Shown here piece by piece: positions 341 through 64,000 of a stretch of DNA of 64,000 nucleotides. Source of the stretch: Amoebophrya sp. A120 (lineage: Eukaryota; Protista; Dinoflagellata). Below the pieces are notes generated by a model. The model made no database searches and was not told the origin of the DNA. It worked only from the letters and a program-made list of their open reading frames with translations. A program made the position numbers and the translations under genes. Positions within the stretch are counted from its first letter, which is position 1; each line of letters starts with the position of its first letter. Where the stretch lies: contig CAJINV010000007.1 in assembly GCA_905178155.1 (NCBI GenBank), positions 154,663 to 218,662 of the forward strand, in the 5' to 3' direction.

Positions 341-3300
341 TCATTTATTTCCATACTTCTTACCGGCACTCAGCCTCTCCTCCTTCTCGCGTAACTCGCG
401 GCGCGTGAGCTGCAGGGAATCCTGCTCGTTTTTCCACTTCGCATCAAACTGCTGCTCCAGGTCGCTTAACCGGTTTCTATATTGCAGTTCCATGTCCGAT
501 ATGCATTGCAAAAGTATCGCACTCGTATAAATGCATTACAAATTTTCTCAGCATTAGAAATGGAGTTTGTCACGCGGATCTGTTTCAAGAAAAATTAAAA
601 TATTTGTGATGCATGATTGCATTTAGATTTACGACGAGTGCGATACTTTTGCACAGGATATCCGACTTCAGCGTTTCCAACCGCTCCTGCTGCGACGCCT
701 ATCAAATGCAAATATGTCTGGGTCTGGAAACTTGTAATGCTCGGTTGGGAATAGTGAACGCTTTGTAATGCACAGCCAAGCATGAGAAATTTTTGCCCTG
801 CTTTGTGTTGCGCTCTCCGCATGAAAAGCTGCGTTTTTGCATGACAGGCAAAAGGCTCTCTTCTTGGACACGCATCACAAACACTTCAGTCATGCCAGAC
901 AAGCATGACAAACCTTGCATCCTTCCAGGAGACCCAGACATATTTGCACTTGATAACGCCTGGTTGTCGGCAACGTTTTGCTCTTTGTGCCGCAGGTCCG
1001 CCTCCCGTTGCTGCAGCTGCCGTTCGTGCGAAACCCGCTGCTGTTCGAAGGACTGTTGCAGCCGCTGCAGTTCGTCTTCCTTGTCGCGAATCTGTTGACT
1101 GAGCTGCAACTCCCTCTCGTTGCAGGTCCGCTCGAAACTTTCTTGCTTCGCGCGAAACATCTGCTCCTCGTTGTCCAACCGCTGCCGCAGGTCGTGTTCC
1201 CGTTTCCGAATCGCATCGTCGACTTCCAGCTGTTTCTGCTGCGTGAAAGATTGCTCAAACAGCCGCTTTTCCTGGGTCAAACCGTCTTCCAGCTGCTGCT
1301 TCTTGAGAAAGAAGTCCCGTTCGAGCTTCAGGTTCTTTTCCTGCAAATCGTGCACCTCGGAGGAAAAAGATCGCTCCTGCTCCTGATTCTTTCGCGCAAA
1401 TTCCTGCTCCAATACGCGTTTTTGACTCTCGAGTTGCCGCTGCTTCTGCTCGAACTCTATCTGCAATTCTTCCCCAATTTTTAGAAGCTCCTGTTCCCGG
1501 GAGTTTGCGTTCTTCTCCGACTGGGACAACCACTATGCATTGCAAAAGTATCGCAATCGTATAAATGCATTACAAATTTCCTCAGCATTAGTGTAATGCG
1601 GATTTACCTTGAAAACATAAACAAGATTTGTATATGCATGATTGCAATACGAGTATCAGATACTTTTGCACAGGATAGCCGCTCGGTGAGGACGAATTCC
1701 AGTTCCTTCTTGTCGTTTTCGTACTTCTGAACTAGCGTCTGCTTCTGGAGGTCAAAGTCCCGGCGTAATTCCAGTTCTTTGTCTTGCAGCTTCCGGGCCG
1801 TTTCGTTGTTCAGGTCCAGCAGCTGTTTGCGCTGCTGTTCGTGCAGTTCGAACTGGAATTTTTCGTCGAACTTGCTCCGTTCCCGCGTGACCACGTCGGA
1901 TTCTAGCCGGTGTTTTTCGCTTTCGAAATCCATGCGCTGCTGCTCCAGCTTGTCCAGGTAAAACTTCTCGGTGCGCAGCTTTTCTTGCTGACACCGGTCG
2001 TTCACCTCCAAGTCCAGCCGGTGCTTTTCGTTCCGCATCTTATCCGTGAACTCGCAGTCCAACCGGTACCGTTCGTCCTGCAACTGCAGCTCTAACCGGT
2101 GCTATCCAAGGAAAAAAGTGTTACAGTTACGCATGTGTTGGAATTTCAGCATCACAAATTTGCTCTGCATGACGAAGAAAACTTGTAATGCGCAGACCAT
2201 AAGGGAAAACACGAATGGAATGAGGCTGGCACGCGTTTCCTGCATGACAGAGGTTGTCTGTCTTGCTTGTCTTGCATGAGAGTGTGTAACAGTAAACACT
2301 TTTTTCTCACGATAGGTGCTTCTCCTGGGAGAGCCTCTGCTCGATCTCGGAATCGATTTTCATCTTTTCGACGCGGAGTTTCTCATATGACAGTGCACAA
2401 CTCCCACTACAACCCCTCATTTGTAATGCAAAATCCCAAATCCAGCTGCTGCCATGTAGCACCACTAGTTGCATGACAAATCCTGCAAGCTCAAACAGCA
2501 CCACACTCCCGTGCAAATTTGTCATACAAAGCCGGCACTGTTGCTGCTGCTTGTATTGCCGTTCATGCGTATACAAATGAGGGGGACGAGGAGGAGTTGT
2601 GCACTGTCATATCTCACTCAAGTCGTGCGCTGCGCGTTCTTTCTCACTCCTCACCTTCTGCTCGAAGTCGGATTCTAGGCTTAGCCTTTCCTGCCTCACT
2701 TTGTCGGCAAAGTCGATATAAAATGCAAAAATGTGTGGGTCAGGAATTGTCATGCACAATTTGCATGGCCCATAATGTCTGTGGTGCATTCCCTAGCATC
2801 ACAGATTTTGTCACGGCTTCCTGATCCTGATGCCCATGCTACAGGAGAAATGCCCAATTGGGGAGGAAATAGTAGATCTCTTTCGCGGCTCATGTAATAC
2901 AGATTTTACGTGTAATGCATAGGCAGCATCACAAGTTGCCATCTTCCAGACCCAGACATTTTTGCAATGCATAGTCGAGTTCCAGTTGCAATTTCATCTC
3001 CCGGGCGTGTTGTTCGGCGAGCAACGCGGCTCTTTTATGAATTGCAAAAGTACTCGTATTGCAATCATGCACGACAAATCTTTTTCTTGAGGTAAATCCG
3101 CATCACAGATTTTTCTCATGCTGAGGAAATCTGTAATGCATTTATGCGAGTACGATACTTGTTTTGCAGTTCATATCTTTCCTGCACTTGCAGTTCCAAG
3201 CGGTGCTTCTCCTGCGCGACGCGGCTCTCCACCTCGGACTCTAGTCTCGCCCTTTCCCATATGAGAGTGCACAACTCCCTCTTCCCGTCATTTGTGATGC

Positions 3301-6300
3301 AAAATCCCAAATCCAGTCAAACCCCTGTGACACTGTTTGCATGACAAATTTCGAAAGCCCAGACAGTACTACAATAGGCGCATAAATTTGTCATGCACAG
3401 GCTCCAGGGTTGCTGGCGTTTGTTTTGCTGTTCATGCAATACAAATGAGGGGGAGGGGGTGGAGTTGTGCACTGTCATATCCAACCGCAACTTTTCCGCC
3501 AAATCTTGTCCGTGTTTCTCTTTTTCGCTTCGCAATCGTTGCTCGAATTCCGCTTCTAGTTGCTGCTTCTCACTGCGGACCTTGTCCGAGAACTCGAGCT
3601 CCAAACTGTGCCGTACTTCCCGCACGTGCTGATCACTCTGGAGTTGCAGCTTCTGTCTTTCACTGTTCGCCGCTAATTCGAGCTGGCGCGTACAGTCGAG
3701 CTTCACTTTTTCGCACTCCTTCTCGAGGCTCGAGGATTGGCGGACCGCTTCCTCCTTCTCGTGGAGTAGTTTGTGGAGCTCCTTGTCCTTTTCCAGTCTC
3801 TGTTTGTGGAGGTTCTCGTTAAACAGCAATTCCATGCTATCGCGAAGAAAAATCCACCCACTCCCATATCGCAAAGGGACACTTCTGAAATAAATTAAAT
3901 TTGCAATGCTGATTTGTGGCCACAAATGGTCTCTGTATTGCAACAAGGCCAATCCAGAGACTCCGCCGCATTATGCAGGCAGTTTGTGATGCTATGGGCC
4001 CTACAGATTACACATTTGCCATGCTACGCGCCTACGTCAGAACCCTTCTACTAAGGCTTGGTATGGGCCTGGTGCCGTCCTCCACTGCAAGACAGACCTG
4101 ATTTGTGTACGCAAATCCAGCATGAGAGCCTTCCTTTTGATATGGGGAGGGGGGATTTTTCCTTTTGATACATGCGGTGCTTTTCCGCTTCGAAGGCGTT
4201 TTCCATGCGGATTTTCTCCGTCCGCAGCACCTGCTCGCCTTCGGATTGCTTCTGCTGCTCGATCATCTGCGTCTTTTCGAGCAATTCTCGCTGCAGCTGC
4301 TCTTTTACCAGCAAGTTCCGCTGGTTCATCTCTTCTTCGAGTTTCTGCTTTTCCAAGCGGATCCTGGTTTGGAAATCCAGTTCTAACCGATGCTGCTCGT
4401 CACGAACCCGCTGCTCGGAGGTTAGCTCCAACTTCTGCTTTTCTTGCGCCAAATTTTGCTCGAAGACTCGCCCTTGCTCCAGCTTGATCTCCTCCCGGAT
4501 GTCGTCAACCACCGCTTTCTCGACGAAAAGTGACTGGTGTTCCTGCTGCAGTTTGTACAGCTCCTTGTCGCGTTCCATCTTTTCGACATGCAGTTTCTCG
4601 TTGAACTGCAAGTTCAATTCGTGTTTCTCCACATTGAACGCATTTTCTAGCCGCATTTTTTCCGCGTGCAGCTGCTTCTCAAATTCCGCGTTTTTACTCT
4701 CGTTCAACTGCTGCAGTTTCTCGTTCTGCTCGGTCAGATACTTTCTTTCCAAAGAGGAAAATTTCGTTTCGAAGTCTTGCAATAAAATGCTCTTTTCACT
4801 GTCGAACTTGCTTTTTTCCGCTTCCAGGCAGTGCAGGTGCTCGGCTTCCTATCCAAGAAAAAAACACCATCACAGTCACATTTAGGAGGTTTTGCATCAG
4901 TAATTTTTCTCGCATGACAAATTTTTCTTGTATTGCAAAAACATAAGGGAAATCCCGTATAAATTTTGACTGTGATGCATTTTTGCGCATGACAAAAATT
5001 TCTGTATTGCAAAAACGTGCAATAGTGATTGTGATGCTCGTTTTTTCTTGAATACTTCCAGCTGCGCGATTTTCTGGTCGAAGGTTTCCCGCTCCTTGAT
5101 ACCCCGATCGACCTGCTGCTCTATCCCAGAGAAAAAAGCGGGCAGGGCATGTTTGTAATGCAAAAATAAATGCAGAGAAAAACTTGTCAATGTCATGGTT
5201 GGCCACATAGCATGCTGTTTCGGGTATGCAATACAGATTTTTCTGTGTCTTTATTTCTGCATTACAAATCTGTCCTGCCTGTCTTTTTCTGTGAGATAAG
5301 CTCCGTCCGCTGCAGAGAGTCCCGGACCATCTGCAGCTCGTTTTCGAATTGCAGTTTTAATTTATTCGCCTCTAGTTTCTCGGTATTCAGCGCCGCGTTC
5401 CGGTCGAAGAGTTGCTGCTCCGTTTGCCGGATTTTCGTTTGACAGTCATTTTTCACCTCCAGAAGCTCCTTTTCGTAGTCTTTCTGCCTTAAACGCAGCA
5501 ATTCCTCGAGGTCCTGCTGCTTCTTCTTCGCCTGTTGCTTTTCCTTCTGCACTTGCTGATGACATTCCTTCTCCAAGTCCGCTATTTTTTTCTCCGAATT
5601 TTGCTTCCACCGCTGCTTTTCCGCTTCCAGTATGCATTGCAAAAGTATCGCACTCGTAATATAAATGCATCACAGATTTCCTCAGCATGAGAAATAACAT
5701 TTGTAATGCGGATTTACCTTAATGTAATGCACGACTGCAATTACTACGAGTACGGTACTTTTGCACAGGATATCCAGCTGCTTGCTGTAACTCTCCTCGA
5801 TTTTCGCCTGGCGGTCGGCAAACTGCTTCTCTAGCTCTAGCCGTTGGTTCGACAACACGACCCGCTCGTTGCTCATCTCGCCACAGATGCTGCTGTGCTT
5901 TTGCTCGAACTGCTGCTGCATTTCGTGAAGCTTTTCCCGGTACTCTTGCTCCACTAACCGGTTTTTGTTTTGCACGAGGAGCTTCTCGGATTCCAGTTGC
6001 TGCTCCAGTTCTATCAATTGTTGCTTGCACAGTTTTATGAACTGCAAAAGCATCGACGTACTAGTGGCGATTGCAATACAAATTAGCTGTGCATGACAAA
6101 GAAAATTTGTCATGCTGATTGAGCTTGGAAAGGAGATTTGTCATGCATCATTGCAATTACGAGTACGAAGATATTTTGCAATGCATAAGTTTTTCGATTT
6201 TCAACTTTTCTTCGTAGAACTCATTTTCGAGATTTGTCTGTTTGTCGAGAAACTCCTGCTCTAATTGCCTTTTCAACTGGGTGAAGTTCCGCTTTTCAGT

Positions 6301-9300
6301 GTCCAGCAGCTGTTCCTGCCTCTGCACTTTCTCCTTGCACTCGTTCAAAATTTTCTTCTGCTCCGTCGCAGTTGATTCTTTCAGCTTCGAAAACTGGTTT
6401 TCTGCCTCGCGTTTCTGCTTCTCTAGTATGACCCGCTCAGATGTTACAATCTCAAACGTTACAATAGAATCTGGAAATCTGTCATGCAGGAGTGAATGAT
6501 TTAGCCAACTCTCATGGGGCGGCCACGCATGACAAGTTCCGGCGGAGTCCCAAACCGCACTACAATCTGGCGAAATTTGTATTGCAGAAAGTGGAACGGT
6601 CTGTGACTCTGTAATGCTCGCGATGCAAGACAAATCCCAGATAATTCTATTGTAACGTTTGAGATTGTAACACCTGAGCGGGTTATATCGAGATGCTCTA
6701 TTTTCCTTCTCGCTTCCTGCCGTTCTTTCTCCCAAATTCGCTGCTGTTCCTGTTCGAAAGAATCCTTCGAAGAATTTAATTTCCGCTTATGCATTGCAAA
6801 TATGTGTGGCTCTGGAGAATTCTGAGATCTGTCATGCTGTTTTTCCAAGCTCTCTCAAGTCTGCAATGCGGGGCCTAGCATCACAGGTTCTGCTGCCCCT
6901 TCGTGATGCCTATTCTGCATGAGAAATGCCCTCTCAGAATGACCAGAAGTGATTACCTATTGCCAGTCATGCAACACAGATCTCAGTCGTATGGTCCACA
7001 ACTCGCATCGCAAGTTCGGATCCTTCCAGACCCAGACATCTTTGCATTTGATACCGCTTCTCCTGCTGCAACTTCTGCGAAAAATCTTTTTCCAACTCCA
7101 GAACCTTCTCGTTGTACTGGTTTTCCAGCCGTTTCCTCTCCTCGGCAACAACTTTACTAGAATTTTGCTCCTTCTTATCCGCATTGTCCTTGACTTTTTT
7201 CTCGTAATCCAGCTTCAAGCTCCTTTGTTGCTCCTTGAACTCCAATTCCTTGGACTGAAAATCAATATCAAATGCAAAAGTGTCTGGGTCTGGAAACTTC
7301 TAATGCTAAAAGGGAATGATAGACGCACTGCATTAGGCAGCTACGCATGACAAGTTTTTTGGCTGCCGTGTCTTACGTATTCCGCATGGCAAACTGCATT
7401 TTTGCATGACAGGTAAGAGGGCCTTTTCGTGCCTATGCAACACAGATTCTCGAATCATGCCAGACAAGCATGACAAACTTGCACTCTTCCAGACCCAGAC
7501 ACGTTTGCATTTGATAATCAAACTCCAGCTGCGATTTCAATTCCCGGTACTCGTTTTTCAGTTTTTTTTTATGCATTGCAAAACTATCGTACTAGTACAA
7601 ACCAGCCATGCTCCGGCTGCCGCCGGAGCGCAGGGCTGTTGGGCCGGGGCAAGACTGTTTGCCGATCGGACCACAACGCCACGGGTCTAATATGCACAAC
7701 GAAACATACTGGAGTCCCGCTCCTTCCGCCTGTTTGCGCCGCGCCAACCCGCAGGACCACTTGCGCGCTTCCCGCGCCTGTGGGCGCTCTGCGCAGGGAG
7801 CAGCTGCAAAGAACACCGGGGGCGAACAGAAGCCGCCAGGCGCGAGAGGGTAGCGCGAGAGGGTGGCGCGGGAGGGTGGTGCGGGAGGGTGGCGCGAGAG
7901 GGTTGCGCGAGAGGGTGCGCGAGAGGGTGGCGCGAGAGGGTGGCGCGGAAAGGCGCCGAACAAAACAAGTCCACGACTGGCCTGCAGTGCCAAATATGGG
8001 GACTACCATGCGGATTCGCGCCCGCCACTTTGTGTTTTTACCCTCTCGCAGACCTCTCGCAGACCCTCTTTTTGACCTCTTTTGGGGGTCCCCGCTAATA
8101 ATCCGGCTATACTCGCGGGTAGAGGTCGACAGAGGTGGCCGAGAGGTGGCCAAGAGGGTCCGCGAGAGGTCGCCCCTTATTCGCGCCACCTCTCTCCACC
8201 TCTGTCGACCTCTCGCGCCCCCTCTTTTTGACCTCTCTGCACCCTCTGAGGCACTTAGGCGCCGCCTTAAGGTGGGGCCTTCGGCGGGCTATACTCGCGC
8301 ACCCTCTCGCCGACCCTCTCGAAAGGGGTCCCGCGCCACCTCTCCACCTCTGTCGACCTCTTTTTTACCTCTTTTGACCTCTTTTTGACCTCTCGGCCAC
8401 CTCTCGTTTACCCTCTGTCTACCTCTTTTTCCGCATGAATATAGTATATAGTAATAGCATGACAAATTTTTGCAAAAAGAAAAATGGAATTTGTAATGCT
8501 GATTGAGGTTAAATGGTAGATCTGTCATGCAAGACTGCCATTCATACGAGTACGATACTTTTGCACAGGATACTTTTCCGCTTGCTGCAAAACGGCGGTT
8601 TGCTCGTCAATTGATTGCTCCAGTTCCCGCTGTCGGTCCTGAAATCTTTTCTCGAGATTTTGCTCGAAGAGCACTTTTTCTTCCTCAATTTTCGCCTTTT
8701 CTTCCTTCATTTGTTGCCTCTCAGAATGAACTGACTTCTGCAAATTGTCCTCCTTCTCCGCAAACTTTTGCTCCATATCCCTCTTCTCCTGCTGCAAGGC
8801 CATCCGCTCGGTGGACAAGTCGGCGGAAAGCCTGTTCTTATCCAGTGCAAAAGTATCGCACTCGGACTATTTATTGCAGTTACGCATCACAAATCTAGTT
8901 CTAGGCGCCAAGGGCAATCCGCGTTACAAAATTCATTTCTCATGCTGCGAAAATTTGTAAATGCATTTGTACGAGTACGATACTTTTGCAATGCATAGTT
9001 CTGCTTGGACAGCAGTTCCGCTTCCAGTTCGGAAATTTTCGCCCGAAACTGCTGGTCCAACTCGCGCTCCTTCTTTCGCAGGGAATCCTGCTCCTGCAAG
9101 AGTTCTTCGTTGTAGAAGTGCTGCTTTTCCAGAGTGAGTTTTTGTTTGCTTTCCAGGAGTTCCTGGGAAAGCTTCTCGAATTTCGTCGTCTGCTGCTCCT
9201 CGTTATGGCGTTCTCAAACGTTACATTCTCAACTGTTACATGAACTTGTAATGCAAGAACGGCAAAAGTGAAAGGGCGAAGTTTGCGCCTTTTGCATTAC

Positions 9301-12300
9301 AAGTTCCGCACAGATTTAGGTGCTGTTTAGCCCCTCGCAGATTTGTCATGCGAAGCAGCTTGACCATCTGGCGGCTTAAGGTAGTTTTGCATGGCAAATC
9401 CATGTAACAGTTGAGAATGTAACGTTTGAGAATCCCATACTCGTGCTGGAGGATTTGGAGCTTCTGTTTTTCCAACACCTGTATCAAATGCAAGTATGTC
9501 TGGGTCCTCTGGAAGGATGCAAGGTTTGTCATGCACGTTTTACATGACTCCTGATGTCTGTGATGCATGCCCTAGCATCACAGATTCTGTGAGGGCTTCC
9601 CGTTCATGCCTATACCGCATGAGAAATGCCGTGTCGCCGTGGTAAAAACTGGCCCTCTTTTGCTGTTAATGCAATACAGATTTTCGTAGAATCCAAGTGC
9701 AGCATCACAAGTTGCATCTTTCCAGACAGCATCCAAGGCTATTTGCAGCGCATAACCTCTCGCAGTTGAAACACCTCCTGCTCCGCCTGCTGGAACTGCT
9801 GTTTCTGCTGCTCCAGAAAGCGCTGCTGCTGATGCAACGCGTTCTCTTCCTGGAGCTGCTGTTGCCGCTTCCCGGAGAAAGATTCTTCCTCGATGGAAAA
9901 CGCTTTCCGTTGCTTCTCCAGTAGCTGCTTTTCCGCGTCGAGCTCGGCTTTCAGCAATTCCAGTTCCGTCTGCTGCTTGAGCAGAATTTTCTCGCTGTCC
10001 TGTAGCTTTTTCACTGAACTTCTTTCCTTCTCACAGAGTTCCTTCTCAATCTGATCGCACCGGTCCTGCTTCTCCAGTAGCGAACTTTCCATCTGCTTCT
10101 TTTTCAGCTCGAAGTCTTGCATCAGTTCAAGAAATCCGTGCTCCGATTTCTGCAGCTCCAGTTCGGATTTCTGCAGCAGCTCCGACCGTAGTTCGAGTTC
10201 CTTCTGCTCAAAACTTGCTTTCAAATTCTGCTTCTCGAGGTCTAGCAGATGCGTTATCCTGAGCAAAAACGACCCCACCCCATAGTCAAGATGGGAAACC
10301 TGCTAAACAAATCAGCCAGCTTTGGTTGTTGTGCATGACAGGTTTCGCCTCGTAGTGCAATCCTGTTTAGCTTGTTCAGCGGCATCACAGATCTAGCCTA
10401 CTATGCTGATTGGAGCATTACAAATCCCAAAGAACGACTAGAAAATGCTTCTCATGGATCTCCGCATGAGAAACATTTTCAGCATGCAGATTTGCATTAC
10501 AACTCTGGTGTGGGGACGTTTCTACTCACGATATGCGTCTTGTCGTCGAGGTCTTGCTTCAATGCTTTCTCTTTCTGGGTAAACTCGAGAGTCATATGAA
10601 ATGCAAAAATGTCTGGGTCTGGAAACTTGTGATGCTAAAATGTGACTGGTGGGCGCACTGCAATACGCAACCAAGCATGACAAATTTTTGAGCTGCTCTT
10701 GTGTTTCGTTTTTCGCATGGCAAACTGCGTTTCTGCATGACAGACAAGAGGCCCTTTTCGTGCCTATGCAACACAGATTCTCGAGTCATACCAGACAAGC
10801 ATGACAAACTTCCAGACCCAGACACTTTTACAGTTGATAAGTCAAAACCTTCTCCAATTCCTCCAATTCTGCCAGCCGCTTCTTCTCGATCAGCTCCGCG
10901 TTCAATCTTATGCATTGCGAAAGTATCGCTCTCGCATGGCAATCATCGTTCGTTCGTTGTGGATCGGCTCTGCCGACCGGGTAACCCAACGCCTTGCATA
11001 TAAATGACCGACTTAGGCGAATCCCGTTGCGGGCATACAAATTGGCCGTACGGAAGGGCCCTAAGCGCTACATACATAGTTCACCCTAAGCGCCTACCAC
11101 TTCGGTCTGGGACCTCGTCTACCTGATCCTGGGGGTCCACAGCGCACTAGCCCTTTGCTAGCATAAACAGACTGGGTTCTAAAAACTGACTTAACTCCCT
11201 CCATCCTTACAACAGTAAGGCCATCATAAAGGTGCGCTAAAAAGGGTTCGGGGCGCTCCGTACGGAAGGGAGCCTTTCGACGCGGCGTACGCTCTCCTGT
11301 AGAGGTTTACGCGGAACACGGATGGGCCGCGCACGCAACTCAGTCGAGGAGGACACACGCTATCCTCAATAACAGAGGCGGTAGTCCCTCACGGCGGCTG
11401 GCCTGTCTGAAGACTGTAAGCCCCACCTCCCATCTTCCCGGTTCGTCAATGACTCGGGCGAGCCATGTTACTTAGACTCCCCGCACATGCAAATATGGGA
11501 CGGCTGGGGGGGTTTAAAAGGTGCTCGCGCCGTTCATGATCTACTATAAAAGAAAAAGTCTTACTTATACAAATGGCGGAGCTTATAACTACGAGCTGAT
11601 GGCCTCCTGTTTAATGCTTCATCTCCCTCCTTCCTCTTTTCTTCCTTCTTCAATTAAATTCGCCCCCCTCTTCACCTTTAACTCGCCTCTGTTTCAATTT
11701 AACTCGCCGCCATCTAACTCGCCTCCTTCCTTCTTCGCCATTAGTCGCCTCCTCTCCTGTCTCTTCCCCACTTTGACTCGCCCCTTTCCCGTCTAGCTAG
11801 CTGCTCCCGGCTCGCAGTTCAGAGTCTTCGCGCATTCAAGTCGAACGCCTGGCCCCGTTACCTGCGTAATTATTTTTTTTTATTTTTTTTTTTTTTTGGG
11901 TCTGGATCGTCTCCGGGCTTCTTTATCTGGATGGGCTCGATCTTCTTAGCCTCTTGTCTTTACCTGCTTAGTATATTTTTTGGGATCCTGTAAGTTCCTC
12001 ACCCTGCCTCGTGATCTGCCTGAGTGCTCCCGTGCTGATCTTAGTTGTATCAATTTCGTCGGCCGCTTAATGGTTCCACTAGCTGGACAGGTTTTGAAGG
12101 CTCTGAGAGCGATGGCGAGGCTTTGGGACGAACGCACCAATTCGCGCGAATCTTCTCGCCGGCTTCTCTTTTTTATTTTTTTTTTTTTTCTCTCCTGTTT
12201 CTGTTTCAGATTTAGAACTCTACTGCACTGGACTGCTGTACTTTTCAGCAGCCGGCAAAGTCTTGCAGTGATGTGTTTTTCAAACGGCCAACGAGGTGCA

Positions 12301-15300
12301 TTTCTCAAACTTGTAGAACATTCAGACGCGACTCCCGAGCTGACTTAGAGACTTTTCAGCTGTTTAACCGTAGAGATCCTGCGTCGCTTGTAGTCGTCCT
12401 CCCGCTCTCCCTCCTGCGCCCATCTGCAAGGGTTCGCTGATAATCCGCTGCATCGTTTGCGCCAGCGTCTCCTCCTCTTCGGCTGCTTCTTGTTTATTAT
12501 CTCCGTGCTGTTTGCTTTTCTGCCTTTTCCTTTGCGTTGTATCTTCTCCTTCTGCTTCTCTCTTTTTGGACTCTGTTCTTTCTCCTTCGGCGCTTTTTCT
12601 TCTCCTCACGTTTTCACTGTTGCTCGCTCTTCCTCTTTGTCCTGCAGCGCTACTTGCTCTCTGGTCTTGCGATGCCCCGGCTTCCTTTGAGTATTTTTTA
12701 TGCCCTCCCTTTGAAAATTCTAATGAGTACGGCGCTTTTGAGGTTAGGGGGTCTACTTCCGCCCGCACTGGCTCGGCCAACTCCTTTGCTTCTGTCTTTT
12801 GCTTTGTGCTTTTCGCTTCCGCTTGTTTTGATTTTCGTTGAGTCGCCGGCTTCTCATTTCCTCCCGTGACTTTAGCTTCTTTCCCTGCGCTGCTCCGCGT
12901 TATTCCTATACTTATGCCTTTACTTTCTAGCGACGCCCTGGCTTTTGGCTGGACGGCCGAGAACCTGCTGCGTTGCGCGCTGCCTTCGTGCCTACTTTTT
13001 TTCGTTTCTTTTTTCCCTCTTCCTTCTTCGCTCTCTTTCCGTTCCCCCCATTTTTCCTCTTTTGTTGTCGTCCCCTGTTTCGCTGGGCCGTCTCCCTCTG
13101 CGGTCACTTTCTGCCTCGTTTTTTTCTCCTTCCACTCCCCTACGCCTCCTTGTGCCCTTTGCGCCCCTACCTTATCGACTCCTCTTGCTTCTTCTTTGTC
13201 TTCTTGGCCCGTTCCATCTACCTCCTCCCCTTCCCAATTGTAGTCCCGCAGCTCTCCAGGTAGTATCTTCTTCTCTTTTCTTTCTACTATCGAGAGCGAT
13301 AGCGACTGCAATGCTGTCCCCTTTTCTGTGTCTCTTATACTATTTTCCCTCGTGTCATTTCTATTTTGCGCATCCTCCTCTTCCTCCTTAATCATTCTTG
13401 CAGCGTTCTCCAGCAGCTTCCCCATTAGGTCCTCGTCTGCTTGCTTCACCTTTTTCCGCTCTACTAGATGCGCTTCTTCCTCACTTTCCTGCTCGTCTTG
13501 CCACTCTTTCAATATTCCTCTAATGTCGCTATTCTCCTTAATATCTTCGGGCTCTTCTATCTTTTTGAGTTCTTCGGGGCATAGTGCTCCTATTATGAAG
13601 TCCTGCCGCTCAGTCCTTGTCATCTCTGGCCAAGCTTCTACGTCTGGCAGCCCTAGCGCCCCTTCTCCGAAATCATATATCGGCCAGATTAGTGACCCTC
13701 TGTCCATCTCCGACACATCAATGGCTCGCAGGGTCTTGCTTGTCACTATCTCTACTCCTTCTCCCACCCTCCTCTCTTCTTCTTTTACTTCGAGGCCCCC
13801 CTTATCGATGCATATCCCCACTGTACCACTGTGGCCCTGGAACCGCAAACGCCTCTGCGCTTCTTCTTTCTCTATCTTGTGCTTCTTCTCTACTCTTTCC
13901 TCATTTTGCTGATGTAGTTCTTCAATCTTTTCTGTCAACTCTAAACAAATCCCGTGCTCTGCCCGCAGTTGCCCCGCTGTGGCGCTCCGTAGCACATCGT
14001 AGTCCACTAGCTTCACCGCTATCCCTTCTGCTTCTTCTTTTTGCAAATCTTCCAGGATGCGCAGCGAGTTGCTCACATAGGCCAGGAATCTTTGCTCCTG
14101 CTCCCTCTCTTCTGTTTCGAGATGCTTCTGCTCTGTCTTATATATTCTCTTCTCCCACGATGCTCTTCCCGTCGTTCTTCCTGATACTATTCTTCTGCGG
14201 GTCACTACTGTCAGCCCTAACTCGTCTGCTGCAATCACTTTCACCAACTCTCCATCCTTCGGCCATGAATTCTCATACGTTCTAGAGTTGTCCTGTACTA
14301 TCCCTGTCGCCCTCAGATCTGACACTGCTGGCATCCTTATGCTCGTCCCTTTTCCCATTGCTTCCAGTAACGCTATATCTGCCACGTTTCTCTTTTCCAT
14401 CATCTCTTTGATTCCCTTCGTTATACCTTGCTCCCCTTCTCCTAAAATTCGCACTGGTAACGTTGCCCACTTCATAAATAGGCCGATGTCCGTGAGCATG
14501 TTCTTCTGCGCTAGTGATCGCAGTGTTTTTATACCCATTAAGAATGGATCAACTGCGGATAGAACATTATACGAGTACACTACCCGATAGAGCGTCTCCG
14601 GCGTTGTTTTTGTAATCTTCATTATTTTCTGCAGTGTCTTCTCTGTGAAGCCTATTGCTTCTGCTATTACTACTGCCAGCTCCCCCATCAACTCTGCCCA
14701 ATCTTTGTCCGTGAAGAACATCTGCATAACCGGGAGGAAGTAGATCATCGCCGACGTAAAGAACACCTGTATTACCCACTTCAGTTCCTCGCCGTTAATC
14801 TTCTTCCTTGCTTTCATCACCTGCAGCGATAGGCGCTGCCCTATGCCGATGCTCTGCTTTACCTGTCCCTTTATTAACTTTCTCCGCTGCTCCGCTCCCA
14901 GCGTTGTTATTGTTGTCCCGAGTATTTTTATCGTCTTTCTTTCATTGAATCTGATCCCGAACGGTCTAAATGCTTTCCGCACTTCTTTCCTCCTCTTTTC
15001 CTCTCTATCTGACGACGTGAGCTCGCACTTCTGGGGTGCCAGGAATTGCCCCTCACGAGTGTACGTTATTTCGTACGCTATCGCTATTTCTTCCAAAATT
15101 TTCAATACTTTGCCGTGATCTTCTTCGTGGTATGTAAGTGCTAGCGCGCCATCATCAACGAACTGCACCGCTAGCGTTTGCGGCTGCTTCTTTTTTCCTT
15201 CTGCCGTGTTCTGCTCTCCTACCCATTCATATTTTTGCTTGTTCTTCCTTTTCCTTTTTAGTACTCTCCTCCTTCTCCTTCCTGTCCTGGGGGGCTGTTC

Positions 15301-41650: not shown

Positions 41651-41666
41651 TGATCAATCGGTGTCT

Positions 41667-42948: not shown

Positions 42949-43659
42949 GTTTAATATGGTCCGGGTAGATATCCGTCGCTGTAAATCCTTTTCTCAAGAG
43001 TGCCACTTCTAGAGGACACGAGAGCTGTCACTAGTTAGAGTTAGTAGTTTCAAGAAACAAAAGGGTAAGGGCTGTGCTGAGATTATTTCGACTCACGCTT
43101 TGGAAGCGATGCGCACCATGCGGAGAATAAAATCAGTGGTAACAATGTGCGGATTCAAAAGAGGTGTCGACGTGTTGGCAAGGGGTAATGAAGCATCCTG
43201 TGGTCGATGACGGTGCTGAGATTTATTTGTTGCCAAGAATTTGAATTACAATTACTCGCCGCGCCCAACGAGTAAATCAAAATAAAAGATGTGCTGCTCG
43301 GTCGTACGCGTATGTACCCCTTCCTGCGTGGAGGTTGGAGAACAATATTATGAATAACATTTACAGCCTCATCAACATTAGGCTGTAGTCTTTCTGTTGA
43401 AACTGAACATTGAAAAATGACCGAGGGGCCTGCCTGCGACTGCGTCGTGTTCTTGTATAATTTGCGCAACAAACAAAACCGACTCATCGCGCAACCGACA
43501 GTGCTGGTTTCGAGCTACCGCTTTTCAGAGACGACCGAAAATCAGACTTCACTTTCGTCTGCACGAAGTACATGACTACGCTAGAAGAAACATCAGAAAG
43601 GAGCCGCGGGTGCACAGTGGTGTCGGGCGAGCCCTCCGTGAGGCCGCCCGCGCGCCACA

Positions 43660-50880: not shown

Positions 50881-51096
50881 CTGATATTTTTCCTCTGCAA
50901 TACGAAATAAGCTCGCCTTGTTCTTCTAGTTGTACATGGAAATAGAAACTTTTGACGCGCATCGACGGACAAGGACGACGCATCGATCTTTTAATTTAGG
51001 AGAATGATCTTCTAGGCCAAAAATTATGCAGGAGATTTTCAGCCTCATCAACCCTTGAGAGACAGGACGTAGCACAAGATATACCATGCACCGCTA

Positions 51097-52359
51097 TCAA
51101 GCAGAAATTTGGAATAAAGCTGCTCTGGCGCTGGCCTGCAAGTTTGTCATGCAAAAATGCAAACAATTCTTTTCCACAGAAAACAACTCTATGGGCACGA
51201 CTGCAGGGGCGCAACTTTTCAGCAGGATATGCTCCAGCTCCGGTTCCAAGGCAGCCATGGCTTCGATTGCCTCCTCCAAGTCCACGAAACCGATTCTCTC
51301 AAGTTTGTCATGCGCGGCGCCCAAGTCGTGGCTCAAGGTTGTAGGCGTGACCTCATTCTCATGGGCGGCCATCAGCTGCGCGAGCGCACCACCGGCCTTC
51401 TTGCTGAGCCACTTCTTCACTGGCTTTCGCTCTACTAGAACCAGCCCCTTGAAGGAGGTCGTGTTATGGTCCTCATCGTGTTCGTCGTCCGTGTCCTCTG
51501 CGACCAAGTGTGCCCGAGCTTCCTGCAGTTTCTGCTTCACATAATTGCGGTGTGTTTCAATGTCGCTGAGCACACGCTGCAGGCTCTCCACCCGAGACCA
51601 CTCGGCCTCGACGCCGTCTAGAAGTGCTTGCTGCAGCAGCTCCTGGTCGGTTATGTCAGACGACGAGGACGTGGAGAACACGCGCTCGGCCCAAACGCGG
51701 TCGGCGCTGTCTTTCACAATTTCCTCCGCCGCCAGAACCGCCTTCCTCGCCAGTTTGGTACGAGCTTCTGCGCCGGCAAGATTGGCACGCAAATTCAACG
51801 ATGATTCATAGGCTGATAGTCCTTGTGATAACTCGCGTCGTGGTCCTGCTGGCGATGCAGCTGGCGCGATCTCTTTCACCACTTGTTCCACCACTGCTCC
51901 TTGATGTTCCTTTTCACCCGCCGCGACAGGAGCCGCTTCATCCACGAAAGCTCCAAGTCGACGAAACGGAGGAAGAAGCGTCTGCTTCCCCCGCAATCTG
52001 TATTTTTTCGGGCCTGCCGACTGGAGCACTCGCTTATTTTTGTTTTCTACAGGAAGCAGCTTCTGCTTCCCCCGCAATCTGTATTTCGGGCCTGCCGACT
52101 GACCACGCACTCGGTTATTTTTCAAGGAAGCAAGCGCTTGTTGCTCTCCCCCTTTTTTGCCCTGGTTCGGTCGTGTGGATCCGGGACTTCTAGTAGATAA
52201 AAAGAAGTCGCCGGAAGTTGTAGATACGGGCTGCTTCTTACTCAATCGTGGCGTTGCTCCTCCTTCATCTAGGTCAAACCTTCTCTTGCGCGGCGTGCCC
52301 CCTCCCTCGACGAGCGCAACAAGCAACGAGAACGCGATGCCTAACGAGGCCCTTCTCAT
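51097..52359 (-). CDS. Hypothetical protein with signal-peptide-like N-terminus and duplicated KYRLRGKQ motif
   Basis: 420-aa ORF; MRRASLGIAFSLLVALVEG; QSAGPK(K)YRLRGKQxLLP occurs twice; helical C-terminal half. 3' end uncertain. Confidence 0.65.
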   Translation of the reverse strand: MRRASLGIAFSLLVALVEGGGTPRKRRFDLDEGGATPRLSKKQPVSTTSGDFFLSTRSPGSTRPNQGKKGGEQQALASLKNNRVRGQSAGPKYRLRGKQKLLPVENKNKRVLQSAGPKKYRLRGKQTLLPPFRRLGAFVDEAAPVAAGEKEHQGAVVEQVVKEIAPAASPAGPRRELSQGLSAYESSLNLRANLAGAEARTKLARKAVLAAEEIVKDSADRVWAERVFSTSSSSDITDQELLQQALLDGVEAEWSRVESLQRVLSDIETHRNYVKQKLQEARAHLVAEDTDDEHDEDHNTTSFKGLVLVERKPVKKWLSKKAGGALAQLMAAHENEVTPTTLSHDLGAAHDKLERIGFVDLEEAIEAMAALEPELEHILLKSCAPAVVPIELFSVEKNCLHFCMTNLQASARAALFQISA

Positions 52360-57740: not shown

Positions 57741-60700
57741 TCAAAACGTGTAGATCTGAAAAAATTTTGGTTTCACTACAATCTTACAGGGCGTGTAGCC
57801 GATATTTTCACCGTCAATGTTTAACCGAGCTGGCTTATCGTGAGGAAAAATCCCCCCTCCCCATATTGAAAAGGCATCCTTTTGAAAATTTGCGATGCTA
57901 ATTTGTGGCCACAAATCAGACCTGTCTTGCAAGAGAGCAAAGCCAGAGCTTCCGCCATTTTACGCAGGCGATTTGTGATGCTGCTGCGCCAACAGGGCAG
58001 ACGCCTGCCATGCTGAGCGGCCACCTCTAGCAAGCCCCTTCCAGGCTCTGTATCTGCCTGCAGTCCTATACTGCAAGACAAAGGTGATTTGTGTACACAA
58101 ATCCCGCAACACAGATTGTCACTTTGATATGGGGAGGGGGGATTTTTCCTTTCGATATGGCTCGCTGGACTCGAAAGACCAGTCCGTGACTTTTTCGTAC
58201 CCCACGCGCTTGTCGTTTACGTGCTATCCTGGATAAACACGCCCCCATCCCATTAGTTTAGTTGTCATGCAGAATTGCGATTACAGGAAAATTTGTAATG
58301 CGCAACTCCATGAGAGGCATTTCCAATCGCGTTTTGGGATTTGTAATGCTGGAAACAGGATAAGCAGATGGATTTGTGATGCGATTGCCCTTGCTAACAC
58401 GGCGACTACACTACGGACTGCAACTTGTCATGCGTGGCTCCTAAAACTTCTGGACTTGTCTTGCTAAGTTCCTAATCATTGACTAGGGCGGGGGGGCTGG
58501 GGCGTTTTTACATATGATACGTGTTGCCCGTTCTTTTTCACCTTGTTAAACAGCCCCAGTGTGGCACAGCAGCCGAGTTTTGGCCCTGTAATATGCACTG
58601 CAAAAGTACCTCGCAGTAGCTTGTTAGTTTAGGTTTACGGTTGTAAATATCGCATTACAATAAATTCTCTCAGCATCAAATATGGAGTTTGTCATGCTGA
58701 TTCATCCTGGGAAGCAGATTCGTCATGCATGTTTGCAATTACTACGGGTATCAGATACTTTTGCGAAGGGTACGTAACCGCATCCAGCAACCCATCGTCT
58801 ACTTCGGCATACGGGGCAGTGTTTAACCTGATAATTTCGTATTTGTTTCTTCACAGTTTTTTGTCATGCGTACTTGCATCACGATGAATCGAATGTCTTT
58901 ATCTAAGTATTTCCATAAGTACTTGTCTCCCACCACTTTCGTGTTCTGCACCAGCGCCAAGGTGATTCCCTTCTCAAATTTGATTTCTCCGGATTTCTTT
59001 TCCCCAGCATATACTGAGCAAAAACGTCTCCAACTTCTCACACGACTTGTCATGCACCATATTTGCATGCCATGCAAGATGGCCAGCTAATTGTGTCTCA
59101 TGCGTAGGCGTAGCCCCACCAGGAGGAGCATTTTCTGATGGTCTCGGGCGCCAGAGACCACTTTCTCATGCTCTAACAAGAAGAAGGCGCTGGATTTGTG
59201 ACGCGGCTGCACTAGCTCCAGCCGCGACAAGAATAGAAACCCAAACTTGTCATGCGCAACCGACAACACTTCTCAGTTTGTGTACGCAAAACTGACATCT
59301 ACTTAACTCTGGGGTGGGGACGTTTTTGCTTCTGATACAGCACTCGGATTTTTACTCTTGTCCTGGTACTTATCCAAGAAAAAAACTGTGTTAGTGTAAC
59401 TTTCCTTGGCGGACAGCATCACAAATTTGCTCTACATGACAGCGAAAACCTGTCATGCGTGGCTTGTAAGGGAAAACACACATGAAAAGAGGACGTCATG
59501 GTTGTCTGGCATGACAGGTGTAGCAGCTCTGTTGCATGTTCTGCATTACAGACTTACACTTACACAGTTTTTTTTCTTGCATAGTACTTGATCACTTGCG
59601 TCGGCCCCTTGCTCGTGTCGATGCGGCTATCAAATGCAAAAATGTCTGGGTCTGGAATGTTGCTGGGTTTGTCATGCATATTTTGCATGACCCAGGATGT
59701 CTGTAATGCATGAACTAGCATCACAGATTTTTAGAGGGTTTCCTGATGCCTATTCCGCAAATGCCCTCCCCGCGTAGCACAAACTAGACTCCTCTTGCTG
59801 GTCATGCGATACAGATTTTTTTAGAGTCCAAAGTTAGCATCACAAGCTCCAACCTTCCAGACCCAGACACTTTTGCATTTGATAGCGGCAGATTTCGAGC
59901 AAAATGCTCCAGTCGTATCGCAACGGGCCGCAGCACCGCCACCGCTCTGCTTTGATGTTCGCATCGACGCCTAACCCAAGACCGAGCATGTTGTGCATCA
60001 GCTTCACGTTAGTAGAAGGCTCTTGACTGCTCGTCGCGTCAGCTACCAAATGCAAACATCTCTGGGTCAGGAAGATTGCAAGACTTGTCATGCAGATTCG
60101 CCGTTACCCATGATGTTGCAGGACCTAGCATCACAGACTCTACTGTGAGATCTCTATCATGTTCACGCCTGTCCTGCATGAGAAACGCCGTCTCAATTTA
60201 CTCAATTGATGTAGTCGTAGTGGACAACCTTATTAGGTAATCATGCAACACAGATTTTTGCAGGAGCAGGATGCAGAAGCAGCATGACAAGTTAGCTACA
60301 CTCTTCCTCACGACATATTTGCAATGCATATCAGCTACGGATGGACCAGTCTGGTACGTGATCGCCCCTAAGTCGATCCACTTCGGCTCTCCTGCGTCTA
60401 GAGTTTGTGATGCAGAAGACTCCAAAAAGGCGTTGATTGCATTGCCTGCGTATCGGTAGTATCCTGTGCAAATATATCGCAGTCATGTTTTTCTGGAGCT
60501 AAGTCTGCATTATTTCTCATGCGGAGGAAATTTGTAACGCATTTATACGAGTACGATAGCGATACTTTTGCACTGCATAGGTAGGTGCGCTTCTTCGTCA
60601 GCTTATCCGTACTGTACCCGACGATTCCCAAATCCGTGGCCAGCGCGTTTCCCGTCCCCCCTGGGATCAAGCAGATTTTCTGTTTGATAGATTCCACGTT

Positions 60701-61731
60701 TGCAACCGAGTCGAGGTTCAGTCTCACCTTTTCCCGCGTCGCCAGCCCGTTCAAGCTATGCGTTGCAAAGATGTCTGGGTCTGGCCCTCTGCAACCTGTC
60801 ATGCTATTAAATCTGCATCATGCAAAAATTTGTGTTGCATGCCTACCAAATGCTGCCCACTTTTGATCCAGTTGAGAAGCAGTTTCTCACGCAGGGAGTT
60901 AGGCATGATAGTGATCTCGCGGAATCTGTCATGCTAGGTCCTCCATTGCAGATCATATGGGCGGTCATGGACAACCTGCATGACAAGTCTAGCAATGTTC
61001 TAGACCAAGACATACTTGCAGTTGATACAAACACTCGTTCAACGATCCGTCCCCGCCAATCACCACCAACACCGCCAGGTCCTCGCTCTGCAAAATCTCG
61101 TCCGGAATTTCACTCGCGCACATTTCGAACCCGTGGTTGGCTCGCTGGGTTTCGTAGGAGAGGATCTCGTACTTCTCGGTGTCGAGTTTCTCTAGGAGTT
61201 TCTTCTTCGTTATCAAATGTAAAAGTGTCTGGGTCTGGAAGGATGCAACTTGTGATGCTACCTCTGGACTCTACATCAAATCTGTATTGCATGAACAGCA
61301 AAAGAGGTGTATTTTGTGCTACGCGGAGAGGGCATTTCTCATGCGGTATGAGCATCAGAAAGCCCTCGCAAGATCTCTGATGCTAGGGCATGCATCACAG
61401 ACCTCATAGGTCATGCAAAATCTGCATGACAAACTCCTGCATTCTTCCAGACCCAGACATTTTTGCAATCCATATTCGTCTCATCGTGGAGCTTTTTTCC
61501 CTTCTTCTTCCCGCCGTACGGGTTGTAGATGATCACGATTTTTTTCATCTTGGACTTTGCTTCCTCCAGCGCGGGAGTTGTTGCAGAAGCTGCTGCTGGT
61601 GCGGCAGGAGTGGTGGTCCCTGCGGACGCTAGTTCTTGTACCAGCTGTGGCGGGGCGGCAGAAGCGGATGCGGCGGAGTCCTCTGGGTTCGCAACTTCCG
61701 GGGCCGGATCTGTACTAGTATCAGTGGACAT
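57741..61731 (-). CDS. Sphingosine/ceramide/diacylglycerol kinase family protein (DAGKc, YegS/BmrU-type); 10 introner introns plus 1 canonical intron
   Basis: Assembled exons give IIYNPYGG, VIGGDGSLNE, LIPGGTGNALA, APYAEVDDGLLD and LNIDGE motifs in the correct order; GT-AG intron 58828-58922 (GDK|LNTAP). Confidence 0.92.
57836..58157. mobile_element. Introner, family E
   Basis: DR TGGCT/TGGCT; homologous to 3838-4170. Confidence 0.9.
58225..58519. mobile_element. Introner, family H
   Basis: DR CGTGC/CGTGT; homologous to 24620-24917. Confidence 0.88.
58592..58772. mobile_element. Introner, diverged family B (right terminus GTA)
   Basis: DR TGTAA/CGTAA. Confidence 0.82.
58828..58922 (-). other. 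Canonical GT-AG intron (lipid kinase gene)
   Basis: AA|GTACTT...TTATCAG|G; restores GDK-LNTAPYA. Confidence 0.8.
59010..59337. mobile_element. Introner, family H
   Basis: DR CAGCA/CAGCA. Confidence 0.88.
59371..59583. mobile_element. Introner, family C
   Basis: DR GTACT/GTACT; homologous to 30340-30548. Confidence 0.9.
59628..59884. mobile_element. Introner, family A
   Basis: DR GCGGC/GCGGC; very similar to 29996-30260. Confidence 0.9.
60044..60330. mobile_element. Introner, diverged family A (left terminus TAC)
   Basis: DR TCAGC/TCAGC. Confidence 0.85.
60460..60579. mobile_element. Introner, short family B (120 bp)
   Basis: DR GGTAG/GGTAG. Confidence 0.85.
60757..61027. mobile_element. 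Introner, family A
   Basis: DR CAAGC/CAAAC; removal restores GGDGSLNEC|LNGL. Confidence 0.88.
61211..61474. mobile_element. Introner, family A
   Basis: DR TTCGT/TTCGT. Confidence 0.9.
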
Positions 61732-62548: not shown

Positions 62549-64000
62549 TTATAGTCGCACTGGACTAGCAGTGTAAGTAGATCGCCCACCTGCCGCTTGA
62601 CTACGTGCTGCCGGAGAAGTGCTAGCAAAAGTCGCACTTCTACTTGTCCCCGTCAAGCTCTCCCGCTCGGAACTGGTCCCCTATGCCTTGCAAATATGCC
62701 TGGGTGGTCTGGAAACTTGTATTAATGCAAGTCAGTGAATACTAAGCACTCTGTAATGCACCGCCAAGCATGACAGGTTTTTTCGTCGCGTTGTGTTGCG
62801 CATTCCGCATGTATGACAGGCAGAGGGCACTGTTCGTGGCCACGCAACACAAAGTCCAGATTCCTGCCAGGCAAGCATGACAGATCTCGCAGTCTTCCAG
62901 ACCCAGACATCTTTGCATTTGATATCCCCGCGCCAGTCGCAAAATTGCTCTCGGAGTTCACTGTCCGAATTGTGCTCGCGCGATCTGAAGCAACACGCTC
63001 GACCTGTTGACCTCGGTCGTGCTGTGTTGACCGCGAAGGGTTCGGCGGTGCATCTTGTGTTCGATCTTCGTGTTGCGGCTGCACTGGGTTGTTGCTGCTA
63101 TTCGAAGATCGACTACGGGGGTTGGAGGATCTGGATCGGGTGTCCGGATTAGAGAAGCTGCAGCTCCGCGTATTTGTATTGTTCGACGCCGTCGGGATTC
63201 CGGTCGTGGCGGTCGCGCCGGTGGAAGAAGTTGGAGTGCGCCCGGAACTTCTTGAGCTAGTCCGGGGCTTCTCGCGGTGGTGGTGGTTTAGATGATAGGC
63301 CTTGGTCGCGCCCTCGCTAGAACCACACATCTCCTCGTCTTCCAGCAGTAGCACTGTTCTCGATAACTCCTCCTGGTCTTCCAAAAACAAACTCTCCTCA
63401 ACCAGCACTGAGCTCGGCTCCGGTGGGAGATCGGAGAGAATATCCGAGGCGGTTTATCCTGTATAAAAACGTCGTCCCCACCCGAGAGTTGTAATGCAAA
63501 TCTGCATGCTATAAAATGTTTCCATCGCGGAGACCCATGAGAAGCATTTTCTAGTTGTGTTTTGGGATTTCGACTTGTGATGCTCGGATCAGCATGATAT
63601 GTTCGATCTGTAATGCGGCTGCACTAGCTCAAGACTACTACACTGCGAGCCACAATTTGACGTCATGCCCAAAAGCAAAGCCTGTTGATTTGTGCACCAG
63701 CAGAGTTTGCATCTTCACTAACGGGCGGGGACGTTTTTCCTCAGGATACGGCTCCCGTCGCTTCCGTGACTGATTCGTCGTTACAATCCGCACCGCGCCG
63801 CCTCCGCACGGCCTGTAGCAGCTGCGGGTGCACAAGCCGCCGCAACTTTTTCCACACAGGATTCCGGACAAGGTTGCGCCGGCGCTGGACGTCCCTGCGC
63901 GCGTCCTCCGCATCTTCCAAGGCTGGCCGCGGTGGACAAAGCCTCTGCGCTATGAGAGTGCACAACCCCCCCTCCCCCTCATTTGTGTTGCATGAACAGC
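62549..64000 (-). CDS. 3' part of a hypothetical S/T/R-rich protein; 5' end beyond the window
   Basis: Joins TEATGA|ASDILSD..VLVEE and GAG|TSSERES..PVRL* after removing 63455-63748 and 62682-62924. Confidence 0.7.
62682..62924. mobile_element. Introner, family A
   Basis: DR TCCCC/TCCCC. Confidence 0.9.
63455..63748. mobile_element. Introner, family H
   Basis: DR CGGTT/CGGCT. Confidence 0.88.
63951..64000. mobile_element. Introner, family D, cut by the window edge
   Basis: Begins TATGAGAGTGCACAACCCCCC like other D copies. Confidence 0.8.

Follow-up and report, generated by a model that had tools for sequence, protein, structure and literature searches.

How can genes be expressed when they are interrupted again and again by insertions whose junctions mostly offer no GT or AG, and what sets the positions at which these insertions are cut out of the transcript? 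The question is posed by a 64,000-nucleotide (nt) stretch of contig CAJINV010000007.1 of the dinoflagellate Amoebophrya sp. A120, here called the window (coordinates are its forward-strand positions), in which 62 complete elements that start with TAT and end with ATA interrupt genes, all of them on the minus strand. A preliminary description, made from the letters alone, had proposed that each element is excised with exactly one 5-base-pair (bp) flank. Our analysis argues that these transposon-introns, or introners, are taken out as element plus 5 nt, and probably by a step that measures from the paired UAU and AUA ends, cutting 1 nt ahead of the first and 4 nt past the second, which would imply a dedicated or heavily modified splicing route.

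The transposon-intron system of A120 is real and already known, as the preliminary description had suspected, because a kinase exon of the window is 100% identical to database protein P0001, named Amoebophrya sp. A120, and introners starting with TAT have been published for this organism. Farhat et al. (2021, PMC7789003) report RNA-supported A120 introners of many families, with a hairpin and non-canonical junctions, inverted repeats made of TAT, seven looser bases and AAA, and direct repeats of 3–5 nt; the splice position is termed variable or unknown, 1–5 nt from the repeats according to the legends of Fig. 3 and S23. The same paper reports a near-complete set of spliceosomal proteins, states that U1 and a transposase were not found, analyses only introns of 40–1000 nt and argues against general mobilisation by a transposase. 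In A25 the repeats begin with TTA. The window elements resemble those described there and by Gozashti et al. (2025, PMC12130899): they form five multi-member clusters and eight singletons, carry TAT at 61/62 sense 5′ ends and A at end positions 11–13 in 55–59 of the 62 at either end, are bounded by short direct repeats and are removed from RNA at non-GT–AG junctions. They differ from the published account in four respects, each of them testable: duplications are 5 nt throughout, all 12 informative junctions agree with one register (1 + 4), removal extends to a copy of 10.8 kb, and a spaced internal site is common to the families. No statement of a fixed register was found in the literature searched, outside which lie the figures and Table S4 of PMC7789003 and subscription papers (Roy 2023).

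Removal of the elements from RNA

An end-similarity scan with hand curation yielded the 62 complete elements, 58 of them 120–333 nt long and four expanded by inserts (909, 1003, 2002 and 10,830 nt). Together with one decayed copy (25,783–25,981) and one copy truncated at the window end (from 63,951), they bear out the earlier count of about 63 insertions, mostly of 120–335 bp. A strict scan (TAT..ATA, identical flanking 5-mers and terminal inverted repeats, TIRs, matching at ≥12 of 20 positions) returned 39 pairs, one a cross-pairing, vs 0 in each of three Markov shuffles. Flanks are identical over 5 nt in 41/62 elements, over 2 nt in 4/62, and over 3, 4 or 6–9 nt in 0/62; the 5-bp duplication claimed earlier holds for length throughout, but 21/62 duplications are imperfect. 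Outside the window, a pattern scan of metagenome contigs gave 178 stretches, of which 177 loci were read, with the same families at 70–94% identity. Among the 284 elements of these outside loci, which were paired without use of their flanks, the identical flank measures 5 nt in 211, 3 nt in five, 4 nt in one and 6–9 nt in none; in 50 of the 284, the two flanks agree at 3 or 4 of their 5 positions.

Excision of element plus 5 nt restores reading frames. For host gene 1, which encodes a long Glu/Gln/Lys-rich protein, removing 42 elements in this manner (12, 14 and 16 by phase) together with one 199-nt GT–AG intron gives a stop-free frame of 2,975 amino acids; offsets of +0, +3, +4 and +6 break this frame, and +2 and +8 preserve it by arithmetic alone. 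The full model of a DAGK/YegS-family lipid kinase (PF00781), from which ten elements and one GT–AG intron located with the help of P0001 are removed, equals P0001 at 435/435 residues. The earlier assignments of this kinase and of a dynamin (PF00350) both held, as did the observation that most junctions lack GT/AG: a GT/GC–AG pair is attainable in any register for only 4/62 elements, and a frame-preserving GT–AG pair lies ≤12 nt from both ends in 20/62.

The RNA evidence comes from four contig sets of presumptive RNA (X1–X4, which derive from two samples within a single study), three runs of undefined kind and three raw RNA runs. X1–X3 have next to no depth across the dynamin gene and its intergenic flank (36.2–39.0 kb) and therefore behave as RNA. 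Run X5 is DNA-like, with coverage in all 30 bins, and reads through the element ends, which shows that DNA keeps the elements; where X5 filled the list of joints (15 listed, 1,513 more), these were repeat artefacts and contig-piece coordinates were used instead. Between 29,322 and 43,100, 14 joints are listed, and 13 of them are the 13 elements of that region, each removed as element plus 5 nt, with a GT/GC–AG fit within the joint slack in 0/13. One of these, the dynamin joint 39171|39441, appears only in X4 (depth 3.5, side 29). An 11,935-nt RNA contig agrees with the gene 1 model at 15/15 checked positions from 3,832 to 33,394, spanning 34 elements, and this single contig is unbroken across all gene 1 junctions. 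For families 1 and 2, splicing is seen in either orientation, and contig arithmetic puts no constraint on intron length up to 10.8 kb. Neither retention of the elements in mRNA nor junctions at nearby GT–AG sites, the two outcomes that the preliminary description had set against its own proposal, was found: the RNA contigs lack the elements, and all 13 observed joints are element plus 5 nt, not nearby GT–AG sites. The element at 41788 is seen in both forms, an unspliced contig (41754–42131, depth 28–32) standing beside the spliced form (depth 204–221); this unspliced contig is not shown to be specific to that element, as contigs of this kind may be masked by repeats elsewhere.

Position of the cut

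Where the two copies of a duplication differ, the base found in mRNA reveals which copy was kept, and the register can be written as j, which counts how many upstream-copy bases remain. RNA makes 12 of the 21 imperfect elements informative, seven through listed joints and five through mismatch-free piece ends. Contradictions with these 12 junctions number nine for j = 0, six for j = 1, five for j = 2, two for j = 3 and four for j = 5, vs none for j = 4. When registers were drawn at random, one that suited all junctions emerged in 0.85% of 200,000 simulations (p about 0.009). The intron is therefore likely to be N-TAT...ATA-NNNN, that is, the element leaves with 1 nt from the upstream copy and 4 nt from the downstream one. 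The claim of a single excision rule stands insofar as it covers every family that RNA reached, but the rule is likely 1 + 4 and not element plus one whole flank.

The individual junctions, all on the minus strand, are as follows. The copies at 29634..29928 are unlike at sense positions 1 and 4, and the joint 29628|29929 (slack 1, X1–X3) shows that the mRNA retains no fewer than 4 upstream-copy nt. The element at 41788..42100 has a damaged end, TGT for TAT, and copies that differ at positions 3, 4 and 5; its joint 41783|42102 (slack 0) gives exactly 4 + 1, and it is the sole junction that yields exactly 4 by itself. At 35403..35568, with copies differing at position 5 and the joint 35398|35570, position 5 in mRNA comes from the downstream copy, as it does at 5122..5298 and 7570–8572, where the contig pieces begin at 5300 and 8574 without any mismatch. 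Position 2 comes from the upstream copy at 3260..3479; position 3 is given by 6427–6687, 29402–29590 and 32397–32546, and position 1 by 9482–9754, 42284–42551 and 42616–42764. P0001 is uninformative in this respect because the kinase protein is unchanged under all six registers. In the fitted register introns start with AT (21), GT (19), CT (11) or TT (11), unlike U2-type GT/GC donors, and end with 15 different dinucleotides, AG being found in 9/62, unlike U2-type acceptors.

Shared ends and a spaced internal site

The preliminary description had recognized at least eight unrelated TIR families. This did not hold: the families are related, since all ends share the consensus TAT-S-N3-TGC-AAAA and the families have an internal GCATNACA-type site in common. 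Cluster 2 visibly mixes two types, and clusters 1–4 are present in both orientations. The internal site occurs in 57/58 short elements vs seven matches in 28.9 kb of other DNA, and equally on both strands (109 sense vs 101). Same-strand gaps between sites measure 31–33 bp in 37/90 cases vs 2.9 expected, across eight clusters, and the outside loci repeat this pattern, with the site in 265/274 short elements and 169/446 gaps of 31–33 bp. No helical phasing of the site relative to the element ends was found (R 0.15–0.21 at 10.3–10.7 bp). A gap of 31–33 bp would correspond to three DNA helical turns, and this spacing, together with the strand symmetry, makes it likely that the sites are bound as DNA by one transposase.

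A transposase was found neither in the window, in agreement with the preliminary description, nor in the outside loci. Ten long elements of the outside loci hold at most 187 stop-free codons, the long open reading frames (ORFs) of the window have no Pfam match, and no integrase-like ORF is present in any element examined. Viral contigs do not contain the end pattern of family 1. The spaced GCATNACA-type site could serve as bait for this missing enzyme.

A probable mechanism and its alternatives

The account that we favour, and hold to be likely overall, runs as follows. One integrase-like transposase acting in trans would read the TAT-S-N3-TGC-AAAA end and the GCATNACA-type sites 31–33 bp apart, and would insert the elements with a 5-nt stagger. 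In the transcript, the ends are predicted to fold into a stem closed by UAU/AUA whichever strand is transcribed, which would make orientation irrelevant. The cuts would fall at N|UAU...AUA NNNN|, the only register that fits all 12 junctions, and since 1 and 4 sum to the length of the duplication, the target would be exactly restored in any phase and with any sequence. The catalyst may be a modified U2-type spliceosome working without U1, to which the invariant U at intron +2 would be what it is in GU; we give this catalyst about an even chance.

Several observations speak for this mechanism. First, the terminal pairs are predicted at p > 0.5 in 45/58 elements on each strand, and two example elements fold at z −2.5 and −10.0. 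End complementarity within elements at positions 8–16 exceeds that of permuted partners in clusters 1 and 2, not in cluster 3, and we give this test little weight because cluster 3 fails and cluster 2 is mixed. Second, on the side of a spliceosome, U is invariant at +2, a relic at 25,783–25,981 combines the donor G|TAT with an AG newly acquired, AG at −2,−1 occurs in 30/249 elements vs 18.9 expected (p = 0.009; the strand was called by a codon model for 187/261 outside elements), and the spliceosomal protein set reported in PMC7789003 is nearly complete, U1 not having been found.

Other observations weigh against it. The register is seen in RNA for just 12/21 imperfect duplications, five of them from piece ends, and only two junctions exclude j = 3, one of which (41,788) is damaged at one end and, by chance, terminates in AG. 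The host genes are all minus-strand, and for no family is the mirror register excluded in both orientations. PMC7789003 reports variable splice positions, 1–5 nt from the repeats. The element at 26,854–27007 has a non-TAT end (CGT), yet is removed by contig arithmetic; raw RNA run X8 places 1 read over the locus; and the contigs, which come from two samples of one study, drop minor isoforms. Members of one family are not independent, the GCATNACA-type site was chosen from k-mer enrichment after the data had been viewed, and the postulated transposase was not found in the window or the outside loci. As regards the spliceosome, G is not in excess at +1 (82/249, p = 0.17), the AG excess was one of four tests, and the internal site, without sense bias, provides no strand-specific signal. 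As regards the stem, G-U and A-C mismatches are equal (37 each), so that there is no sign of sense-strand selection for RNA pairing, and TIR positions 4–7 pair poorly.

The same elements and the same register could instead be handled by a separate endonuclease–ligase route, as proposed for Euglena, in which an endonuclease would cut at the base of the UAU/AUA stem with fixed spacers, a ligase would join the exons and the intron would leave as a circle or linear molecule. Such a route would require neither G at +1 nor a terminal AG, nor a strand-specific branch signal, and would tolerate introns of 10.8 kb. The N3-CAG...CTG-N5 spacers of Euglena are rigid, and their authors suggest factors distinct from the spliceosome (PMC12501133); euglenid introns leave as circles according to the review PMC11282704. 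Set against this are the hybrid relic intron, which joins the donor register of an element to an AG acceptor, the invariant U at +2 and the weak AG excess; the argument made in the Euglena study is the rarity of hybrids. We regard this route as a real possibility, though one that falls short of an even chance.

It has also to be considered that the GCATNACA-type sites are RNA signals, either branch sites or splicing-factor sites, so that elements would bring their own splicing enhancers on both strands. The U-N-A-C core of the site resembles a branch site. The site is found in 57/58 elements in both orientations and also in the GT–AG intron of the kinase gene. However, the spacing of 31–33 bp looks like three turns of a DNA helix, eight short elements lack a sense copy by the pattern used, including the one at 30,340, which is spliced, and the distance from site to 3′ end ranges from about 37 to >200 nt. 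This reading is unlikely.

A sliding cut, in which element plus 5 is always removed at a position that varies within the duplication and the 4 + 1 pattern is a small-sample effect, strikes us as decidedly improbable. It would agree with the variable positions given in the legends of Fig. 3 and S23 of PMC7789003, register 3 is excluded by only two junctions, and contigs hide minor forms. Nevertheless, random registers produced a common one in only 0.85% of simulations and one contig runs unbroken over all gene 1 junctions, and mapper placement within perfect duplications is arbitrary, which would create apparent variability by itself. That the elements are excised from DNA in expressed copies, or that the genes are dead, can practically be dismissed, given that DNA-like X5 reads through the element ends whereas RNA contigs are joined, that one element occurs in both forms in RNA and that the database kinase equals the spliced model.

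Returning to the stem-measured 1 + 4 cut, we think the balance tips slightly towards A120 having a second sequence-blind splicing code, N1-UAU...AUA-N4, measured from an RNA stem. If so, its spacers would sum to the 5-nt stagger of the resident transposase, and insertions of any orientation and phase, up to 10 kb, would be erased from mRNA, possibly by a spliceosome that lacks U1 and has retained nothing but the +2 U. A fixed register, if true, would replace 'variable non-canonical splice sites' with one rule, predict the mRNA base for each imperfect duplication, the lariat or circle junction sites and the target of U6/U5 or of an endonuclease, explain the tolerance of tens of thousands of insertions and allow correct genome annotation.

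Comparison with known systems

The closest parallel in geometry is found in Euglena, whose nonconventional introns depend on CAG/CTG set off by spacers of 3 and 5 nt, the donor-side distance being rigid (PMC12501133). Both systems combine complementary trinucleotides near the ends, end pairing, fixed sequence-free spacers with a longer 3′ spacer, a suspected origin from miniature inverted-repeat transposable elements (MITEs) and the lack of GT–AG. They differ in their motifs and spacers (CAG/CTG with 3/5 nt, tested by knock-in, in Euglena; TAT/ATA with 1/4 nt, deduced from 12 junctions, in A120) and in the purine preference at the exon start, which is reported for Euglena and is not significant in A120 (152/249, p = 0.13). 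The lineages are unrelated and the A120 introns do not belong to the Euglena type; a fixed register would make A120 a second lineage in which ruler-type splicing fits a transposon, as the convergent counterpart of N3-CAG...CTG-N5. Paired-end non-canonical introns have been described in two diplonemids (PMC12621601), and another Amoebophrya strain is reported to have mostly GT/AG introns and U1 (bioRxiv 10.1101/2024.09.05.611473). A term search of the 2026 review of non-canonical splicing PMC13149111 returned no mention of Amoebophrya.

The preliminary description had left TAT termini with a 5-bp duplication without a named transposon superfamily. A Ginger-like label does exist for one A120 family: among the 41 of 58 A120 rows covered in one dataset of PMC12130899, family 38 is given as 'Ginger; 5-bp TSD, TA/TA Termini', TSD standing for target site duplication. 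Ginger elements (Ginger2/TDD, PMC2836005) likewise have TIRs and a duplication of 4–5 bp, with which the 5 bp found here agrees, and in both TDD-4 and TDD-5 the duplication is 5 bp. Autonomous Ginger copies encode a Gypsy-integrase-like DDE transposase. However, Ginger termini are TGTNR whereas ours are TAT, with TGT at 1/124 ends, and Ginger2 prefers AT-rich targets, for which no clear preference was seen here. We did not adopt the Ginger assignment, because the TGTNR termini are lacking. The MITE introners of Micromonas and Aureococcus and the non-canonical introns of Fritillaria are also non-autonomous TIR elements turned into introns by means of the duplication, but their splice dinucleotides are canonical or defined, one being carried by the element and the other co-opted, whereas the terminal dinucleotides in A120 are largely free. 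Against known self-splicing or structured RNA families, Rfam reports 0 matches at gathering score for the window.

Host genes

The host genes reported earlier, seven in number, were confirmed, whereas an eighth region is uncertain. Gene 1 occupies 344..32995, with elements at 500–660, 700–955, 1534–1677, 2103–2314, 2386–2611, 2717–2973, 3036–3175, 3260–3479, 3838–4170, 4850–5054, 5122–5298, 5631–5772, 6036–6187, 6427–6687, 6788–7053, 7266–7516, 7570–8572, 8839–8997, 9204–9439, 9482–9754, 10255–10533, 10595–10839, 10909–21738, 21863–23864, 24313–24572, 24620–24917, 25023–25287, 25493–25745, 26166–26436, 26521–26773, 26854–27007, 27151–27413, 28827–28975, 29033–29321, 29402–29590, 29634–29928, 29996–30260, 30340–30548, 30619–31527, 31637–31785, 31831–32097 and 32397–32546. 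Its 2,975 amino acids are those within the window. The gene 1 contig extends for 4,091 nt beyond position 3480 vs about 1.5 kb of window exons (hand arithmetic), and because of this excess the gene probably goes on beyond the window, by way of an intron that exits near 354. No annotated gene 1 protein was found among proteins of 817–2330 amino acids, a range too short for it.

Gene 2 (frame 34,301–35,641) has its sole element at 35403..35568. The dynamin gene carries one at 39177..39440, between ITG and VTFP; its frame also contains an in-frame TAG at 37762–37764, which would divide it into 384 and 198 amino acids and over which there is no RNA contig, and 38833–38988 is by eye a likely canonical GT–AG intron, for which no RNA joint is listed. 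Gene 4 (41670..42993) has elements at 41788–42100, 42284–42551 and 42616–42764, and gene 5 (46863..48448), on the basis of frame only, at 46873–47124 and 47420–47645. The uncertain eighth region holds a degenerate element at 51095..51229 whose flanks differ at 3/5 positions. The lipid kinase gene (57744..61731) has its ten elements at 57836–58157, 58225–58519, 58592–58772, 59010–59337, 59371–59583, 59628–59884, 60044–60330, 60460–60579, 60757–61027 and 61211–61474. The 95-nt GT–AG intron of this gene (58828–58922) contains the internal GCATNACA-type site and is possibly an old relic. The gene at the window end (62552..64000) has elements at 62682–62924 and 63455–63748, in addition to the one cut at 63951.

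Expanded elements, relic and repeats

The largest element, 10909..21738, is a family-2 element with an insert of about 10.7 kb that splits it about 38 nt from its left end on the plus strand; contig arithmetic has it removed as one 10,835-nt intron, the joint itself not being listed. We rejected this element as an autonomous copy and read it as a nested insertion, because the insert splits an ordinary family-2 element. The insert (10947–21630) has minus-strand ORFs of 1,745, 345, 395 and 421 amino acids and a short tandem tail. Its 1,745-residue ORF has no Pfam, PDB-sequence or homologue-search match, and by eye the insert contains what we take to be reverse-transcriptase-like and AP (apurinic/apyrimidinic)-endonuclease-like motifs; it is likely a divergent non-LTR (long terminal repeat) retrotransposon. 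A stretch of 676 nt of the 10.8-kb element matches outside locus L002 at 88%.

The element at 21863..23864, filled by a tandem array, has flanks that differ at 4/5 positions and is removed by contig arithmetic. Two others carry similar inserts of about 800 nt: the family-2 element at 7570..8572 and the one at 30619–31527, whose joint is seen directly (914 nt). This insert is a GAGAGGGT-rich element of about 800 nt, which nests in family-2 introners at both places, is present in outside loci L027 and L028, and also stands free at 40800–41650 in the 3′ region of gene 4. An RNA joint skips the 835 nt of 40781–41615 in X1–X3 (depth about 100, side only 28 nt); it has neither TAT ends nor GT–AG and could represent either an artefact of repeats or a different class of intron.

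The relic at 25783..25981 is a decayed family-1 element that has lost its far end and gained a new AG acceptor, so that it is now the 199-nt GT–AG intron of gene 1; its G|TAT donor lies in the same register as those of the elements, and its length is needed by contig arithmetic, its exact ends not being seen in RNA. Tandem arrays occupy 21950–23600, 43680–46000 and 53400–57300, and the units of the array at 43.7–46 kb include a TAT...AAAA sequence that resembles an element end.

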